Shown piece by piece: positions 1 through 7,439 of a stretch of DNA of 7,439 nucleotides; position 1 is the stretch's first letter, and each line of letters begins with the position of its first letter. The stretch comes from a virus. Lineage: Duplodnaviria > Heunggongvirae > Uroviricota > Caudoviricetes. The DNA lies in IMG/VR virus record IMGVR_UViG_2645727715_000009; one strand, written 5' to 3'. Position numbers and translations under genes: made by a program. The notes below the pieces were generated by a model. It saw only the letters and a list, made by a program, of their open reading frames with translations, ran no database searches and was not told where the DNA came from.

Positions 1-253
1 CATGCTGGCGAACGTCTCCGGCGCACCGTTAATGTTAACTGCGCTGGCGCTGCTTTTTTTTTCTCCAACTCCTATGGCGGCATGGCTTACTCACTATGGC
101 GGTGCGGCAGGTCCGGTCATCTTCGGCGTAGGCTATAACGATATTAAATCCTGGTGGTTGGTCGGTGCGGTACTGACGATATTAACCTTCCTGGTACATA
201 TCACCCTCGGCGTGTGGTGGTGGAATATGCTGATCGGCTGGAACATGCTGTAA
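1..253 (+). CDS. ybhI: C-terminal fragment of an inner-membrane transporter (DASS/SLC13-like anion transporter); 5' end lies outside the window
   Basis: Reading frame open from the window edge to TAA at 251-253. Translation is hydrophobic and Trp-rich (LTILTFLVHITLGVWWWNMLIGW), typical of a transmembrane C-terminus. Symbol assigned from remembered K-12 gene order (ybhI-ybhJ-ybhC-attB lambda), not from a search. Confidence 0.6.
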   Translation, partial: MLANVSGAPLMLTALALLFFSPTPMAAWLTHYGGAAGPVIFGVGYNDIKSWWLVGAVLTILTFLVHITLGVWWWNMLIGWNML

Positions 254-587: not shown

Positions 588-2699
588 ATGGATAAACTTA
601 AAATTAAGTTTGATTCATTAGCCTCTCACGATATTACCTTTGTTGGTATTGTACAGACCGCTAAAGCGTCCGGTATGGAACGTTTCCCGCTGCCGTATGT
701 GCTGACCAACTGCCATAACTCACTCTGCGCCGTCGGCGGCACCATTAACGGTGATGACCATGTTTTTGGTTTATCGGCAGCGCAGCGTTATGGCGGTATT
801 TTTGTGCCTCCACATATTGCGGTCATCCATCAATATATGCGTGAGATGATGGCAGGCGGCGGCAAAATGATCCTCGGGTCAGACAGCCACACCCGTTACG
901 GTGCGTTAGGTACGATGGCTGTCGGCGAGGGCGGCGGCGAGCTGGTAAAACAACTGCTTAATGATACCTGGGATATCGATTATCCGGGCGTGGTCGCGGT
1001 GCATCTAACCGGAAAACCTGCGCCGTATGTGGGGCCGCAGGATGTGGCGCTGGCTATCATTGGTGCCGTGTTCAAAAACGGCTACGTCAAAAACAAAGTG
1101 ATGGAATTCGTGGGGCCCGGTGTTGCAGCGCTCTCTACCGATTTCCGTAACAGCGTTGACGTGATGACCACTGAAACGACCTGTTTAAGTTCTGTCTGGC
1201 AAACTGATGAAGAAGTCCATAACTGGCTGGCGCTGCACGGTCGCGGCCAGGATTATTGTCAGCTTAACCCTCAACCGATGGCGTACTACGATGGCTGCAT
1301 CAGCGTTGATTTGAGTGCCATCAACCCAATGATTGCGCTGCCGTTCCACCCAAGCAACGTGTATGAAATCGACACGCTGAACCAGAACCTGACCGACATT
1401 CTGCGTGAGATTGAAATTGAGTCCGAGCGCGTGGCGCACGGGAAAGCCAAACTCTCGCTGCTGGATAAAGTGGAAAATGGTCGCCTGAAAGTGCAGCAGG
1501 GGATTATCGCGGGCTGTTCTGGCGGTAACTACGAAAACGTCATCGCGGCGGCGAATGCACTGCGTGATCAATCCTGTGGCAATGACACCTTCTCGCTGGC
1601 GGTTTATCCGTCATCACAGCCGGTGTTTATGGATTTAGCCAAAAAAGGCATGGTAGCAGATTTGATTGGCGCAGGCGCAATCATCAGAACCGCGTTCTGC
1701 GGCCCATGCTTCGGTGCGGGTGATACGCCAATCAACAACGGTTTGAGTATTCGCCACACCACGCGTAACTTCCCGAACCGCGAAGGCTCTAAGCCAGCTA
1801 ATGGTCAGATGTCAGCGGTGGCGTTGATGGACGCCCGTTCTATTGCTGCGACTGCGGCAAACGGAGGCTATTTAACCTCTGCCAGCGAACTCGATTGCTG
1901 GGACAACGTGCCGGAGTATGCCTTCGATGTAACGCCGTATAAAAACCGTGTTTATCAGGGCTTTGTGAAAGGGGCGACCCAGCAATCGCTGATCTACGGA
2001 CCGAACATCAAAGACTGGCCGGAATTGGGCGCGCTGACTGACAATATCGTCCTCAAAGTGTGCTCGAAGATCCTCGACGAAGTGACCACCACCGACGAAT
2101 TGATTCCTTCCGGTGAAACCTCTTCTTATCGTTCAAATCCGATTGGTCTGGCGGAGTTTACCCTGTCACGCCGTGATCCGGGCTATGTTGGCAGAAGTAA
2201 AGCGACTGCCGAGCTGGAAAATCAGCGTCTGGCGGGCAATGTCAGCGAGCTGGCAGATGTATTTGCGCGCATTAAGCAGATTGCTGGTCAGGAGCATATT
2301 GATCCGCTGCAAACTGAAATTGGCAGCATGGTCTATGCGGTGAAACCAGGCGATGGTTCTGCGCGTGAGCAGGCGGCGAGCTGCCAGCGTGTGATTGGCG
2401 GTCTGGCGAATATTGCCGAGGAATACGCGACTAAACGCTACCGTTCTAACGTCATCAACTGGGGGATGTTACCGCTGCAAATGGCGGAAGCACCAACGTT
2501 TGAAGTGGGGGATTACATTTACATCCCTGGCATTAAAGCGGCGCTGGATAATCCAGGTACGACGTTTAAAGGTTATGTGATCCATGAAGATGCGCCGATA
2601 ACAGAGATTACGCTCTATATGGAAAGTCTGACTGCTGAAGAGCGCGAGATTATCAAGGCGGGTAGTTTGATTAACTTCAATAAAAACCGTCAGATGTAA
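588..2699 (+). CDS. ybhJ: Aconitase-family (Fe-S) hydratase, 703 aa as drawn; true start may lie upstream (see findings)
   Basis: Long ORF with aconitase signatures GSDSHT and CGPCFG (cluster-ligand cysteines) and an [14 protein letters not shown] swivel-type motif. Stop TAA 2697-2699. The ATG at 588 has only a weak SD (GGAA). Confidence 0.85.
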
Positions 2700-2839: not shown

Positions 2840-4123
2840 TTACTTCTTCGCCTCTGCAACCACTTTGCTACCCACGCCGCGGTTATTGTATTCCCACATG
2901 CGGTTGTAGTTAGTGTCATTCAGATTACGCTGTACTTCGTCGTTATCATCAACGTTGCCAGTATTACCCGCAAACGGACGATTGGAAATCACCGCATCGG
3001 CCCACGGTTTAGCCGTGTTAAAACCTTCGTTGATGGCGCTATCACGGATCACCACCTGACCGTTGGTATTGGCATCAACATCCAGCGAGCGGCCCAGTTG
3101 CGCCACGCCATCACCAGAAGCATTGAAACGGCTGTTTACGGCGAGGAAACCGTAATAGATGTTTGACAGCGTAGCCGGTGCAAACACATACGCTTCTTGC
3201 TGGGTACGGGAGTTCACCACGCGGAATTCGGTATTATCGAACACCACTGCGCCGCGACCAGAAACGATATCCACATCCCCTTCAATGTAACTGTTGGTCA
3301 CCAGAGTACGCGGCTGACGGTTGGTTTCCAGACGGTTTTGCACACCACTGTTGGTGACAAAGAATGTATTCTGACGACCGAGAATGTTGACGTTATTGAT
3401 CTGCACTTTGTCGCCATCAGTACGCAGTGCCACCGCCGGATGGTTACCCGCATCTACGCTATCACCCAGCGTGTTTTCGATGGTCAGGTTTTGCAGTTGC
3501 AGGCCATTGTTTTGTGACCAGAAGACCGCAGAGCAGAGAACGCCGATACTGTCGCTGCGTTTGCTCTGGCAGCTATCGTACATATACCACGCTGGTTTAC
3601 CTGGCATATATTTGCCGCGCGGGTTGACGTCGTGACGCCAGTCGGCAGGGCTCATGCCCCCATCAAGGGAAAGCCCAATCTTCACATCAATCGGTTTTTC
3701 ACCTGTACCGTACAGAGTAATTCCACCCGGAGCGGCAGGGACATACACCGTTCCCTGATATTCACCAGGCATCACGGCAATATACTGGCGCTTGTTGGTG
3801 CGCTTGATAATTGCCGCATCTACCGCCGCCTGAATCGTGGTATGCGTTACACCTTGAGTACCCGCCGGGCCGACAACAAAGTCAGGTTGCGCAGGCAGGG
3901 TAATCGGGGAAGGATTCCACGCTGCAGCACCTGGCGTCAGGGACGCAAAATAGTGTTGAGCATCGAAATTCTGCGCTTCTTTTGCCGACAGAATCGGGCG
4001 AGAAGAGGTACCAGGCGCGGTTTGATCAGAAGGACGTTGATCGGGCGGTGTTGAGCTACAGGCGGTCAGCGTCACGCCAAAAGCCAATGCCAGCGCCAGA
4101 CGGGAAACTGAAAATGTGTTCAC
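2840..4123 (-). CDS. ybhC: Outer-membrane lipoprotein with pectinesterase fold (YbhC-type acyl-CoA thioesterase), 427 aa, GTG start
   Basis: Signal peptide plus lipobox (LTAC) at the N-terminus; pectinesterase-like motifs (PAVALR, GDVDIVSGRG). GGAG sits 6 nt upstream of GTG at 4121-4123. Lies immediately next to the lambda att core, as expected for ybhC. Confidence 0.85.
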   Translation of the reverse strand: MNTFSVSRLALALAFGVTLTACSSTPPDQRPSDQTAPGTSSRPILSAKEAQNFDAQHYFASLTPGAAAWNPSPITLPAQPDFVVGPAGTQGVTHTTIQAAVDAAIIKRTNKRQYIAVMPGEYQGTVYVPAAPGGITLYGTGEKPIDVKIGLSLDGGMSPADWRHDVNPRGKYMPGKPAWYMYDSCQSKRSDSIGVLCSAVFWSQNNGLQLQNLTIENTLGDSVDAGNHPAVALRTDGDKVQINNVNILGRQNTFFVTNSGVQNRLETNRQPRTLVTNSYIEGDVDIVSGRGAVVFDNTEFRVVNSRTQQEAYVFAPATLSNIYYGFLAVNSRFNASGDGVAQLGRSLDVDANTNGQVVIRDSAINEGFNTAKPWADAVISNRPFAGNTGNVDDNDEVQRNLNDTNYNRMWEYNNRGVGSKVVAEAKK

Positions 4124-4162: not shown

Positions 4163-4260
4163 GAAGCCTGCTTTTTTATACTAAGTTGGCATTATAAAAA
4201 AGCATTGCTTATCAATTTGTTGCAACGAACAGGTCACTATCAGTCAAAATAAAATCATTA
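4163..4260. other. attL (B-O-P') of a lambda-type prophage; 15-bp core GCTTTTTTATACTAA at 4170-4184
   Basis: Exact lambda core sequence, followed by P' arm sequence (GTTGGCATTATAAAAAAGCATTGCTTATCAATTTGTTGCAACGAACAGGTCACTATCAGTCAAAATAAAATCATTATTTG) running into the int stop codon. Bacterial arm sequence on the ybhC side. Confidence 0.92.
4209..4260. promoter_or_regulatory. P' arm protein-binding sites: IHF H' (TATCAATTTGTTG) and Int arm-type sites P'1-P'3 (AGGTCACTAT / CAGTCAAAAT / AAAATCATTA)
   Basis: Matches to the IHF consensus WATCAANNNNTTR and the Int arm-type consensus C/AAGTCACTAT read directly from the sequence; assignment by analogy with lambda attP. Confidence 0.7.
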
Positions 4261-5328
4261 TTTGATTTCAATTTTGTCCCACTCCCTGCCTCTGTCATCA
4301 CGATACTGTGATGCCATGGTGTCCGACTTATGCCCGAGAAGATGTTGAGCAAACTTATCGCTTATCTGCTTCTCATAGAGTCTTGCAGACAAACTGCGCA
4401 ACTCGTGAAAGGTAGGCGGATCCCCTTCGAAGGAAAGACCTGATGCTTTTCGTGCGCGCATAAAATACCTTGATACTGTGCCGGATGAAAGCGGTTCGCG
4501 ACGAGTAGATGCAATTATGGTTTCTCCGCCAAGAATCTCTTTGCATTTATCAAGTGTTTCCTTCATTGATATTCCGAGAGCATCAACATGCAATGCTGTT
4601 GGGATGGCAATTTTTACGCCTGTTTTGCTTTGCTCGACATAAAGATATCCATCTACGATATCAGACCACTTCATTTCGCATAAATCACCAACTCGTTGCC
4701 CGGTAACAACAGCCAGTTCCATTGCAAGTCTGAGCCAACATGGTGATGATTCTGCTGCTTGATAAATTTTCAGGTATTCGTCAGCCGTAAGTCTTGATCT
4801 CCTTACCTCTGATTTTGCTGCGCGAGTGGCAGCGACAGGGTTTGTTGTTATATGGCCTTCAGCTATTGCCTCTCGGAATGCATCGCTCAGTGTTGATCTG
4901 ATTAACTTGGCTGACGCCGCCTTGCCCTCGTCTATGTATCCATTGAGCATTGCCGCAATTTCTTTTGTGGTGATGTCTTCAAGTGGAGCATCAGGCAGAC
5001 CCCTCCTTATTGCTTTAATTTTGCTCATGTAATTTATGAGTGTCTTCTGCTTGATTCCTCTGCTGGCCAGGATTTTTTCGTAGCGATCAAGCCATGAATG
5101 TAACGTAACGGAATTATCACTGTTGATTCTCGCTGTCAGAGGCTTGTGTTTGTGTCCTGAAAATAACTCAATGTTGGCCTGTATAGCTTCAGTGATTGCG
5201 ATTCGCCTGTCTCTGCCTAATCCAAACTCTTTACCCGTCCTTGGGTCCCTGTAGCAGTAATATCCATTGTTTCTTATATAAAGGTTAGGGGGTAAATCCC
5301 GGCGCTCATGACTTCGCCTTCTTCCCAT
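4258..5328 (-). CDS. int: Tyrosine site-specific recombinase, phage lambda integrase (356 aa)
   Basis: Translation recognised as lambda Int: N-terminal arm-binding domain (MGRRRSHERRDLPPNLYIRNNGYYCYRDPRTGKEFGLGRD), catalytic box HELRSL and LLGHKSDTMASQYRDD with the tyrosine nucleophile. Stop abuts the P' arm. Confidence 0.97.
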   Translation of the reverse strand: MGRRRSHERRDLPPNLYIRNNGYYCYRDPRTGKEFGLGRDRRIAITEAIQANIELFSGHKHKPLTARINSDNSVTLHSWLDRYEKILASRGIKQKTLINYMSKIKAIRRGLPDAPLEDITTKEIAAMLNGYIDEGKAASAKLIRSTLSDAFREAIAEGHITTNPVAATRAAKSEVRRSRLTADEYLKIYQAAESSPCWLRLAMELAVVTGQRVGDLCEMKWSDIVDGYLYVEQSKTGVKIAIPTALHVDALGISMKETLDKCKEILGGETIIASTRREPLSSGTVSRYFMRARKASGLSFEGDPPTFHELRSLSARLYEKQISDKFAQHLLGHKSDTMASQYRDDRGREWDKIEIK

Positions 5329-5524
5329 TTCTGATCCTCTTCAAAAGGCTACCTGTTACTGGTCGATTTAAGTCAACCTTTACCGCTGATTCGTGGAACA
5401 GATACTCTCTTCCATCCTTAACCGGAGGAGGGAATATCCTGCATTCGCGCACCCATCGACGAACTGTTTCAAGGCTTCTTGGGCGTCGCTGGCGAGCGTT
5501 CCACTCCTGAAGTGTCAAGTACAT
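5306..5524 (-). CDS. xis: Excisionase Xis (72 aa)
   Basis: Translation MYLTLQEWNARQRRPRSLETVRRWVRECRIFPPPVKDGREYLFHESAVKVDLNRPVTGSLLKRIRNGKKAKS recognised as lambda Xis; 3' end overlaps the int start by 23 bp as in lambda. Confidence 0.97.
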   Translation of the reverse strand: MYLTLQEWNARQRRPRSLETVRRWVRECRIFPPPVKDGREYLFHESAVKVDLNRPVTGSLLKRIRNGKKAKS

Positions 5525-5551
5525 CGCAAAGTCTCCGCAATTACACGCAAG

Positions 5552-5572
5552 AAAAAACCGCCATCAGGCGGC
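5552..5572 (-). terminator. Candidate intrinsic terminator on the minus strand about 28 bp upstream of the xis start
   Basis: Minus-strand RNA would read CCGCC-UGAU-GGCGG followed by UUUUUU (plus-strand A6 at 5552-5557). Short all-GC stem, so strength is uncertain. Confidence 0.45.
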
Positions 5573-5742
5573 TTGGTGTTCTTTCAGTTCTTCAATTCGA
5601 ATATTGGTTATGTCTGCATGTGCTATCTGCGCCCATATCATCCAGTTGTCATAGCAGTCATTGATGTTCTCTGCTTAGATAACTCTGTTGAATGGTTCTC
5701 CATTCCATTCACCAGTGACTCTGAAGTGCATTTATCATCTCC

Positions 5743-5768
5743 GTAAAACAAAACTCGCCGTAGCGAGT
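5743..5768 (-). terminator. Intrinsic terminator downstream of the 141-aa gene (minus strand)
   Basis: Stem ACTCGC / GCGAGT (5753-5758 with 5763-5768), 4-nt loop, followed on the minus strand by UUUUGUUUUAC (plus 5743-5752). Confidence 0.6.
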
Positions 5769-5818
5769 TCAGATATAATTTTCACCAAAGGCAGTAGTTG
5801 CTTGATGCTAAGAATTAT

Positions 5819-6244
5819 TCAATATCTATTCCTGTAATATTCTTTTATTTTTTTCCTTGCAAAGACTTTTGCTAGTGATTTTGAAACACTCATAAGAGTA
5901 CTAATTCCCTCATCCTTAAAGTTTGTTTTTATAGCTTGCCAGACCTCCTTTTGACGTAAGTCAGCAATAAAATCATGCCCTCTTGCTGTCAACCTCAGTG
6001 GTACTTCGATCCAACTATATTCAACACCTTCCCCTAACTCGTTGGACATTATATGACCGAACCCTGGTTTTCCATCAACCCTAACTATTAATTCGTAGTC
6101 ACATAATAATCGCATATGGAAAATAAAATTTTGGTCATATCTATTAAAGCCATTATCCTCTAGTTCACTAAGCATCGTGTCAGGGCCATAAGTTTTTTCG
6201 AATGCGATAAGTAGATCTTTTAGATATTGCTGGTCTAATTTCAT
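5819..6244 (-). CDS. Small AT-rich prophage accessory protein (141 aa), DUF2513-like (putative winged-helix); function unknown
   Basis: Clean ORF with strong SD (GGAGG, 5-nt spacer, ATG) and TGA stop. Sequence pattern MKLDxxYLKDLLIAFE ... FIFHMRLLCDYELI ... LRLTARGHDFIADLRQKEVW resembles the DUF2513 family as I remember it; needs HMM confirmation. Markedly AT-rich by eye relative to the host genes and int. Confidence 0.8.
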   Translation of the reverse strand: MKLDQQYLKDLLIAFEKTYGPDTMLSELEDNGFNRYDQNFIFHMRLLCDYELIVRVDGKPGFGHIMSNELGEGVEYSWIEVPLRLTARGHDFIADLRQKEVWQAIKTNFKDEGISTLMSVSKSLAKVFARKKIKEYYRNRY

Positions 6245-6249
6245 TGCCG

Positions 6250-6300
6250 CCTCCGTGACATGTCACAGAGATTTATATCATTAATTTTGTTTCGTGCCAG
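6250..6300 (-). promoter_or_regulatory. Predicted sigma70 promoter with extended -10 (TGATATAAA), a 12-bp perfect palindrome GTGACATGTCAC at the predicted transcript start, and the SD of the 141-aa gene
   Basis: On the minus strand: -35-like CTGGCA (plus 6295-6300), 17-nt spacer, TG-n-TATAAA (plus 6272-6280), palindrome at plus 6255-6266, GGAGG at plus 6250-6254. All read by eye; no expression data. Confidence 0.4.
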
Positions 6301-6611
6301 CCTTTGGTCACCCAGTATTGTGAGTCACCATTACACGGGCATGAATTAACAGGAACTCTCTCGCCGCACTTACGGCAACGTTTTCTGCTAATCGATTTTA
6401 TACGCCAGCGCACACGTGCATCATCCTGGCGGCTCAGTAATGCTATGTACTCACCAAACTCGTAAGGCGCACGCCTGAAGCGGCGCGTGGCTCAGTTACG
6501 CTCCAGCATTTCAATTTCCTGAGCATCAAGTACAAGCTCCAGCTTACGCATACCGGATGATGCTTGCTTGGCTCTCTGATCGGCTTTGCGCTCTGCTGCT
6601 GATCTAGTCAT
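6273..6611 (-). pseudogene. 112-codon reading frame interrupted by a single in-frame TGA (6492-6494): 39-aa basic N-terminal segment plus 72-codon C-terminal segment with a C-X2-C-X8-C-X-C zinc-ribbon-like motif. Could be a nonsense-disrupted gene, two small genes, or a readthrough product
   Basis: Hand translation of the minus strand: ATG at 6611 (AGGA 8 nt upstream) gives MTRSAAERKADQRAKQASSGMRKLELVLDAQEIEMLERN, then TGA, then in frame ATRRFRRAPYEFGEYIALLSRQDDARVRWRIKSISRKRCRKCGERVPVNSCPCNGDSQYWVTKGWHETKLMI, then TAA at 6273-6275. Absent from the ORF track because each piece is under 60 aa from a start codon. Confidence 0.3.
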
Positions 6612-6804
6612 TCTGCTTTTCCTGCATCAGGAGAAAGACAATCATGGCGGCGCGGATACTTCCGGTATCTTTTTACGCGATATTACCCTTCAATGGCACA
6701 TACAAGAAGACAGCCATCAGCAGGAATGAGTGAGGAATCGACAACCAGTAACGCTTAATTATCTATAGTGTCGTATTTGCTTCATAAAATATGGCGAATA
6801 ACAC

Positions 6805-6836
6805 AAAGCCCGCAGCAGCTCATTGTGCGGGCTTTT
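6805..6836. terminator. Hairpin terminator, possibly bidirectional, downstream of the 5'-partial ORF
   Basis: Stem AAAGCCCGCA / TGCGGGCTTT (6805-6814 with 6826-6835), 11-nt loop, followed by TTTTCTTAT on the plus strand and by UUUGUGUUAUU on the minus strand. Confidence 0.55.
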
Positions 6837-6904
6837 CTTATACTTACTTCCTGGAGATAATTCTATGGAGGCATTAAATTAATGCTGTCATTGGTAATAT
6901 CATA

Positions 6905-7439
6905 TTATCTAAAAGTCTTTCCACTTTTAACGTCTAGATATATTCTGTTCGACAACGTCATTCCTCCGCAATATGTGAAATAGATGTTTTCACCCTTATT
7001 GCTTGATGCCATCCACCCTCCGATTTCCTTAAAATCGCTTTCCGTGCAGACCCCTTCATTTATTAACTTCCTAGCTGCCGAAGAAAACTCTTTTTTGTAT
7101 ATACGGTAGTCATCAGATCCTTTGATTAAAGTATCATCTCCGCTCGCATTTTCAGCAGGATCTGATGGCCTTTCACTGCTAAGATCACTAAGTTTAACCC
7201 ATTCTGAAAACTTGCCATTAACGATTCCATTTTTTCTTGTGCAGGATTTATTACCTTCTTTAATATATTCGCTTTCCCCTCCAACACATGAGGCTGAATA
7301 TGGCTCAGTTATACGAACCCATTCACCTTTTTTTTTTCTAGAAAATCTACGCCTTCCCTGAAAAAAAAAATAGTTTCCCAGCCACTCCACATTTACTTGA
7401 AGGGCAGGTATGTCTTTCCGTTCGATCAACAACAACCCA
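6905..7439 (-). CDS. Hypothetical prophage accessory protein, 5'-partial (frame open to the window edge); at least 177 codons; AT-rich
   Basis: Minus-strand ORF ending at TAA (6905-6907). The M in the ORF track is a TTG at 7433-7435, but the codon upstream of it (GGG) is also open, so the real start probably lies beyond the window. No motif I can assign. Contains T10 and A10 runs near its 5' end. Confidence 0.6.
   Translation of the reverse strand, partial: GLLLIERKDIPALQVNVEWLGNYFFFQGRRRFSRKKKGEWVRITEPYSASCVGGESEYIKEGNKSCTRKNGIVNGKFSEWVKLSDLSSERPSDPAENASGDDTLIKGSDDYRIYKKEFSSAARKLINEGVCTESDFKEIGGWMASSNKGENIYFTYCGGMTLSNRIYLDVKSGKTFR
7328..7370. repeat. Inverted homopolymer pair T10 (7328-7337) - 23 nt - A10 (7361-7370) inside the partial ORF
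   Basis: Counted directly. On the coding (minus) strand this is T10 (codons YFFFQ) followed by A10 (codons RKKKG). An XbaI-type palindrome TCTAGA lies between them. Confidence 0.9.

Follow-up and report, generated by a model that had tools for sequence, protein, structure and literature searches.

A probable nonsense-mutated pseudogene of a small RHH and Cys-rich phage regulator at the int-xis end of a lambda-like prophage in Escherichia coli

The PHROG 536 family and its copy in the prophage

The closest described relatives of the gene analyzed in this study are the members of PHROG 536, a phage protein family labeled "transcriptional regulator". Salmonella phage epsilon15 gp49 and Escherichia phage phiV10 p55 are intact ORFs of 339 nt each, the gene is also intact as one ORF in Pectobacterium phage ZF40 gp22, SPN1S_0052 and Pantoea AH07_31 (AH07 gene 31), and the E. 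coli prophage proteins WP_001129736, WP_001129693 and WP_001129688 are intact single ORFs. All of the intact homologues that we read, including that of phage Chlobot, were single ORFs of 102-115 aa in which codon 40 was TGT or TGC; the search for a sense codon in orthologues that the first-pass annotation had proposed therefore returned a Cys codon. The epsilon15 record mentions similarity of gp49 to phage N15 gp46. Our literature search on the function of epsilon15 gp49 and on prophage nonsense pseudogenes found nothing relevant.

The window, which is the whole 7,439-nt stretch of DNA that was analyzed, was E. coli DNA. It carried ybhJ (588-2699, plus strand) and ybhC (2840-4123, minus strand), followed on the minus strand by a lambda-type integrase gene (4258-5328), an excisionase gene (5306-5524), a 55-codon gene homologous to lambda orf55 (5564-5731), an intact DUF2513 gene of 141 aa (5819-6244) and, beyond the gene under study, a 204-aa hypothetical gene (6905 onward), only the start of which lay in the window. 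These genes mark the int-xis end of a lambda-like prophage inserted beside ybhC, in the lambda attachment region, and the pseudogene described below occupies the accessory region close to that end.

Lambda Ea8.5, which reportedly contains a zinc finger, is likewise a small protein encoded in the region adjoining int-xis of a lambdoid phage, and it had been suggested that the window held a displaced and disrupted ea8.5-like gene, to be checked by BLASTP. An ea8.5-like identity was rejected on that search, as the match to lambda Ea8.5 extended over 3 residues at E = 22; Ea8.5 was also absent from the profile and fold search results for the PHROG 536 family. The gene that comes after the orf55 homologue is ea8.5 in lambda, but in this prophage it is the DUF2513 gene, which was kept in all related prophages examined.

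The gene itself was found on the minus strand, where window positions 6611..6273 formed one frame of 112 codons with an ATG at 6611 and a terminal TAA at 6275..6273. A Shine-Dalgarno-like AGGA (6623..6620, within 6612..6623) was present 8 nt 5' of the ATG. The translation read MTRSAAERKADQRAKQASSGMRKLELVLDAQEIEMLERN, a stop, ATRRFRRAPYEFGEYIALLSRQDDARVRWRIKSISRKRCRKCGERVPVNSCPCNGDSQYWVTKGWHETKLMI and the terminal stop, and contained only one in-frame TGA, at codon 40 (6494..6492), with G as the next base. The first-pass annotation had described a 112-codon frame with TGA-G at codon 40, leaving its strand unstated, and the translation bore out that description; the peptides AERKADQRAKQ and GMRKLELVL and the CRKCGERVPVNSCPC motif that it had listed were all found in the minus-strand translation. 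The ORF finder split the frame into pieces of 39 aa (6492..6611) and 46 aa (6273..6413).

When the stop was repaired, the product matched PHROG 536 with E = 5e-47, residues 1-111 aligning to profile positions 2-114 of 115. In tblastn, the conceptual product aligned collinearly with 50 phage records, at least 80% of the query being covered in 42 of these, and a protein search gave 394 matching clusters; of the 120 that were listed, most had a length of 112 aa. Because of the full-length PHROG 536 match and the 394 matching protein clusters, the 112-codon frame was not regarded as open by chance. Family members such as epsilon15 gp49, phiV10 p55 and ZF40 gp22 were collinear with the window copy over all 112 codons at 55-93% aa identity, and they shared with it the basic arm, the RHH core, the C-x2-C...C-x-C...C motif and the early/accessory gene position. 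In contrast to these members, the window copy carried a stop at Cys40 together with G80R and C99Y, leaving no 112-aa product and no uninterrupted frame of about 112 codons. The TGA at codon 40 therefore set the window copy apart as a pseudogene derivative rather than a functional member of PHROG 536, and we considered it very probable that this copy (6273..6611) is a nonsense-mutated pseudogene of a small RHH and Cys-rich phage regulator. Its pseudogene status is not novel, as the PGAP/RefSeq annotation already has it; in RefSeq genomes with 99-99.9% identical DNA, PGAP labeled the identical 339-nt span a "hypothetical protein; internal stop" pseudogene.

Position of the stop within the protein

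The closest intact allele (L010), found in phage Chlobot and in an E. coli plasmid-borne prophage, differed from the window at 13 of 339 nt. At codon 40 this allele had TGT where the window had TGA, with no other difference there, pointing to a single T>A transversion that turned the Cys40 codon into the premature stop (6492..6494). In an alignment of 35 sequences, C40, C79, C82, C91 and C99 were invariant and C93 and G80 nearly so. An alignment of 105 sequences agreed, C40 again being invariant, except that C99 was nearly invariant, and in a diverse alignment reaching down to 28-40% identity, C79 and C82 were invariant, C99 was nearly so, and a Cys at 91/93 was conserved. The window copy kept C79, C82, C91 and C93. 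At conserved sites it had exchanged C40 for the stop, the glycine of the C-G-K-C-G knuckle for Arg (G80R; codon 80 CGT, 6372..6374) and C99 for Tyr (codon 99 TAC, 6315..6317), the latter two being secondary degenerative changes by the alignments, and thus it was without two conserved cysteines and the conserved C-G-K-C-G glycine. Gly80 was struck independently, as G80D, in another TGA allele (L037).

A library-wide profile search yielded 184 clusters at 50% identity, which were the source of the diverse 60-sequence alignment. The family profile from this alignment matched E. coli YbfE, an RHH protein regulated by LexA, over family residues 8-69 in hhalign (probability 94%, E = 1e-7); a narrow profile of relatives with at least 65% identity gave a probability of 3% against YbfE. 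AlphaFold2 with the diverse 60-sequence alignment reached a pLDDT of 92.1 and placed helices at 5-19, 30-42 and 52-74, and when 105 close relatives (at least 65% identity) were used instead, the pLDDT was 63.7 and Foldseek gave only noise. Pfam has no model for the family, and Pfam and NCBIfam searches with the repaired protein gave nothing above threshold, only noise and a weak YbfE match, and a PDB sequence search with the single sequence and with the narrow profile of close relatives gave no useful relative.

By profile and fold comparison, the PHROG 536 family has the beta-strand, helix A and helix B of an RHH core, as in the CopG/Arc/MetJ superfamily. The RHH domain, at approximately residues 8-69, is predicted to span the stop, with codon 40 at the end of helix A and helix B downstream, such that the stop would bisect a domain and would not divide two modules. 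The RHH-like N-terminus that had been proposed from the first reading was thus upheld, but the TGA was not the boundary between an RHH part and a zinc part, as it falls inside the RHH domain. The Cys4 zinc ribbon proposed for the C-terminal part was retained as a plausible reading of a Cys-rich C-terminal module, which probably binds zinc. Family residues 48-111 gave a weak profile match to the zinc fingers of TraR and YbiI (E = 0.05-0.07). The likeness to these TraR/DksA-type C4 zinc fingers, which is a hint only, centers on C-x2-C-G-x2-(I/L)-P ... C, whereas the second Cys pair is spaced differently, and a search for a structural match between TraR/YbiI and PHROG 536 found none. The PHROG 536 family can now be described as joining a YbfE-like RHH domain to a Cys-rich, probably zinc-binding tail (C-x2-C ... 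C ... C).

We propose that the parent gene encoded a 112-aa phage protein with a basic arm, an RHH DNA-binding domain (approximately residues 8-69) and a Cys-rich, probably zinc-binding C-terminus. After the T>A change at the Cys40 codon, translation from the ATG at 6611 would end after 39 residues, within RHH helix A. The residual N-terminal ORF (39 codons, 6495..6611), as judged from the ORF list, AlphaFold2 and hhalign, would retain the basic arm, the predicted beta-strand and most of helix A without helix B; the alignments and the substitution pattern suggested that codons 41-112 (6273..6491), with RHH helix B and the Cys-rich C-terminal module, form an untranslated remainder. Since the 39-residue peptide would be missing both helix B, which forms the RHH dimer core, and the Cys-rich module, it is not expected to fold or to bind DNA. 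The codons past the stop would be free of selection and decaying, the window copy having gone on to lose Cys99 and Gly80, and no functional product would come from this copy.

It had also been proposed that the frame holds two independent genes, one for the 39-aa N-terminal peptide and one for a 46-aa zinc-module protein starting at GTG 6413 with an AGGA of its own. Both signals do exist, the GTG at 6413..6411 being codon 67 and the AGGA lying at 6427..6424, 10 nt 5' of it, and the two pieces were those listed by the ORF finder. Gene callers elsewhere gave fragments of 39 and 46 aa (P0214 and P0158), annotators of Chlobot named the 46-aa piece a "transcriptional regulator", and PHROGs has a 40-position family of N-terminal fragments, phrog_34005. 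However, every homologue that we read outside the TGA clade was one continuous ORF, and this included the 112-codon frame of Chlobot itself. In the family alignments, the AGGA and GTG (6411..6427) are coding sequence of the conserved Q62-D63-D64-A65-R66-V67, which would be present with or without a start. The split between the two pieces falls within the RHH domain, the 46-aa piece of the window is without C99, a probable metal ligand, and both halves gather nonsynonymous changes in the TGA clade (5 nonsynonymous versus 1 synonymous in the N-terminal half and 6 versus 3 in the C-terminal half). Two genes are therefore highly unlikely here, and the 39-aa and 46-aa database entries and phrog_34005 are gene-caller products of disrupted copies.

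Distribution, selection and decoding of the TGA allele

To count the two versions of codon 40, a 55-nt query was centered on the third base of the codon, and every 28-nt seed was required to contain that base. Among 5426 complete E. coli genomes, at least 64 carried the TGA version and at least 353 the TGT version; among sequenced phage isolates, no TGA version was found. When IMG/VR was scanned with a degenerate pattern fitting any family member that has TGA as codon 40, 18 loci were returned, all from one E. coli lambdoid clade, and no in-frame stop at codon 40 was seen outside this clade in the homologues read or in the 35- and 105-sequence alignments. The TGA alleles had linked synonymous markers in common (codon 43 CGC and codon 78 CGT). 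Since the markers are linked and the pattern scan was confined to one clade, the TGA appears to have arisen once. Recurrent origin of the TGA in divergent lineages was ruled out by the same scan. An assembly error, a doubt raised by the first-pass annotation, was also ruled out, as the same allele was present in at least 64 independently assembled complete genomes and in 18 IMG/VR contigs. The TGA alleles formed three sublineages up to 13 of 339 nt (3.8%) apart, which suggested that the mutation is not extremely recent; of the earlier proposal of a recently inactivated gene, inactivation by a nonsense mutation was sustained, and "recently" held only in part.

The TGA allele was also found in NZ_CP174001.1 (L014, "plasmid pOHT76-1_1", 43,337 bp, circular), which was deposited as an E. 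coli plasmid but is the nearly complete genome of a lambdoid phage, containing genes for lysis, Q, replication, recombination, int/xis and tail. As its allele is identical, the dead gene travels on an apparently complete phage genome as well.

Selection was assessed on 9 chromosomal and 18 IMG/VR copies of the TGA allele. The sampled chromosomal alleles had 15 variable sites, 11 of them nonsynonymous and 4 synonymous, and the nonsynonymous sites (codons 2, 3, 5, 10, 37, 47, 48, 50, 66, 80 and 99) were distributed on both sides of the stop. The IMG/VR copies contributed G80D and R85K. Downstream of the stop, the conserved residues that had been struck were C99, G80 (twice), R47 and R66. Within the TGA clade, dN/dS (NG86) was 0.74-1.11, with a wide error from only 15 variable sites, versus 0.08-0.28 among intact genes, and the ratio of nonsynonymous to synonymous sites differed between the TGA clade and one intact pair (Fisher's exact p = 0.003). 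The counts are small, but the direction is clear, and they indicated that constraint is relaxed on both halves. The dN/dS between the closest intact allele (L010/Chlobot) and the TGA clade was also raised, to 0.4-1.0, and for this reason the relaxation may partly be older than the stop. No indel or second stop was found in the TGA copies examined despite divergence of up to 3.8%, and a frame of intact length is mildly unexpected for an old pseudogene; at 339 nt, it is a small target.

A different account of the same dead gene is adaptive loss, by which the truncation would have been selected because the intact regulator was costly to the lysogen, with the allele spreading as a result. The TGA allele does persist, in at least 64 genomes and three sublineages and also in the 43-kb circular lambdoid genome that looks near-complete. 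However, there was no evidence for toxicity of the intact gene, intact alleles were approximately 5 times commoner in E. coli, and hitch-hiking with the prophage accounts equally well for the spread. Adaptive loss has the same mechanism, a dead gene, as the best explanation, and we gave it very little credence. As a nonsense-mutated pseudogene, the TGA copy would represent routine decay of a prophage accessory gene, and it matters little.

Like the window copy, bacterial selenoprotein genes of the fdhF type have an in-frame UGA at the site of a Cys in homologues, and E. coli possesses the Sec machinery. The Cys that the UGA replaces does not vary among close relatives, which is the classic Sec/Cys pattern and formally a selenoprotein signature, and the UGA of the window could by this reading be decoded as selenocysteine (Sec) for Cys40, or be subject to programmed readthrough, giving a 112-aa protein beside the 39-aa product. 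The window allele has a GC-rich hairpin starting 4 nt past the UGA (z = -1.8), and the linked synonymous change at codon 43 (CGT>CGC) strengthens it. By the rules for bSECIS elements, as in the fdhF SECIS, the loop is expected approximately 16-37 nt from the UGA, with a bulged U and a GU-containing loop. However, the hairpin loop of the window allele is too near, lying 10 nt past the UGA (+14..19 when counted from its U), and neither a bulged U nor a GU loop is present; G>A and G>T changes disrupt the hairpin in the two remaining TGA sublineages, which comprise most carriers (z = +0.62, -0.20). An Rfam scan of 5500-7439 gave no match at E <= 1.

Downstream of the UGA, conserved residues have been lost (C99Y, G80R, G80D, R47H and R66H), with dN/dS near 1 on small counts, and the stop is limited to one clade and not conserved across divergent homologues. 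With G as the next base, UGA terminates translation comparatively efficiently, and the residue inserted by basal readthrough would be Trp, not Cys. Unlike genes of the fdhF type, the window thus has no SECIS-like element at the right distance, its hairpin is not conserved, and the codons downstream are in decay rather than under purifying selection. Regulated UGA readthrough giving two isoforms, which had been offered as an option, did not hold up against the one-clade stop, the neutral evolution downstream and the hairpin that is not conserved among the TGA sublineages, and decoding of this UGA by either route is very improbable. More generally, a UGA at a conserved Cys with a hairpin is evidence of Sec only where the UGA alleles also conserve that hairpin and the codons downstream.

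A low level of Sec or Trp insertion could potentially supply some full-length protein, or the 39-residue peptide could have a role of its own, and we judged both to be most unlikely. If such a role did exist, the peptide, with its basic arm and beta-strand, might, for example, interfere with intact RHH regulators of co-resident phages, and recoding or a peptide role would explain the persistence of the allele without frame damage in three diverged sublineages.

Neighboring decay and side elements

Decay was also observed in genes close to the pseudogene. The homologue of lambda orf55 (lambdap35, NP_597778), at 5731..5564 on the minus strand, had GAA>TAA at codon 19, with the stop at 5675-5677; it is intact in lambda and relatives (L009), and PGAP likewise labeled it an "internal stop" pseudogene, the second within 1 kb. 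Directly upstream of the pseudogene, at approximately 6640-6754 on the minus strand, the C-terminal end of a UmuD/HumD-like S24 peptidase persisted as a remnant with an in-frame stop, which read ALLVVDSSLIPADGCLLVCAIEG before the stop and YRVKRYRKYPRRH after it. The same truncated remnant was found in related prophages and in Chlobot, and PGAP annotated it as a partial "S24 family peptidase / DNA repair protein". At least one near-identical genome had a prophage that was heavily deleted overall.

Public proteins included damaged or truncated-looking members of PHROG 536 (P0154, P0200, P0220 and P0234). In P0154, many residues departed from the consensus and position 99 was Tyr, and this set also included fragments of 42-47 aa with ends near codons 40-47, some of which may be contig ends. 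Disruption of the PHROG 536 gene may be common in prophages.

Between the 204-aa gene and the pseudogene (6808-6840), a GC-rich hairpin at 6817-6833 on the plus strand was followed by TTTTCTT. It resembles an intrinsic terminator, and it may act bidirectionally. More terminator-like hairpins were present on the minus strand at 5770-5751 and 5574-5555, on either side of the orf55 homologue.
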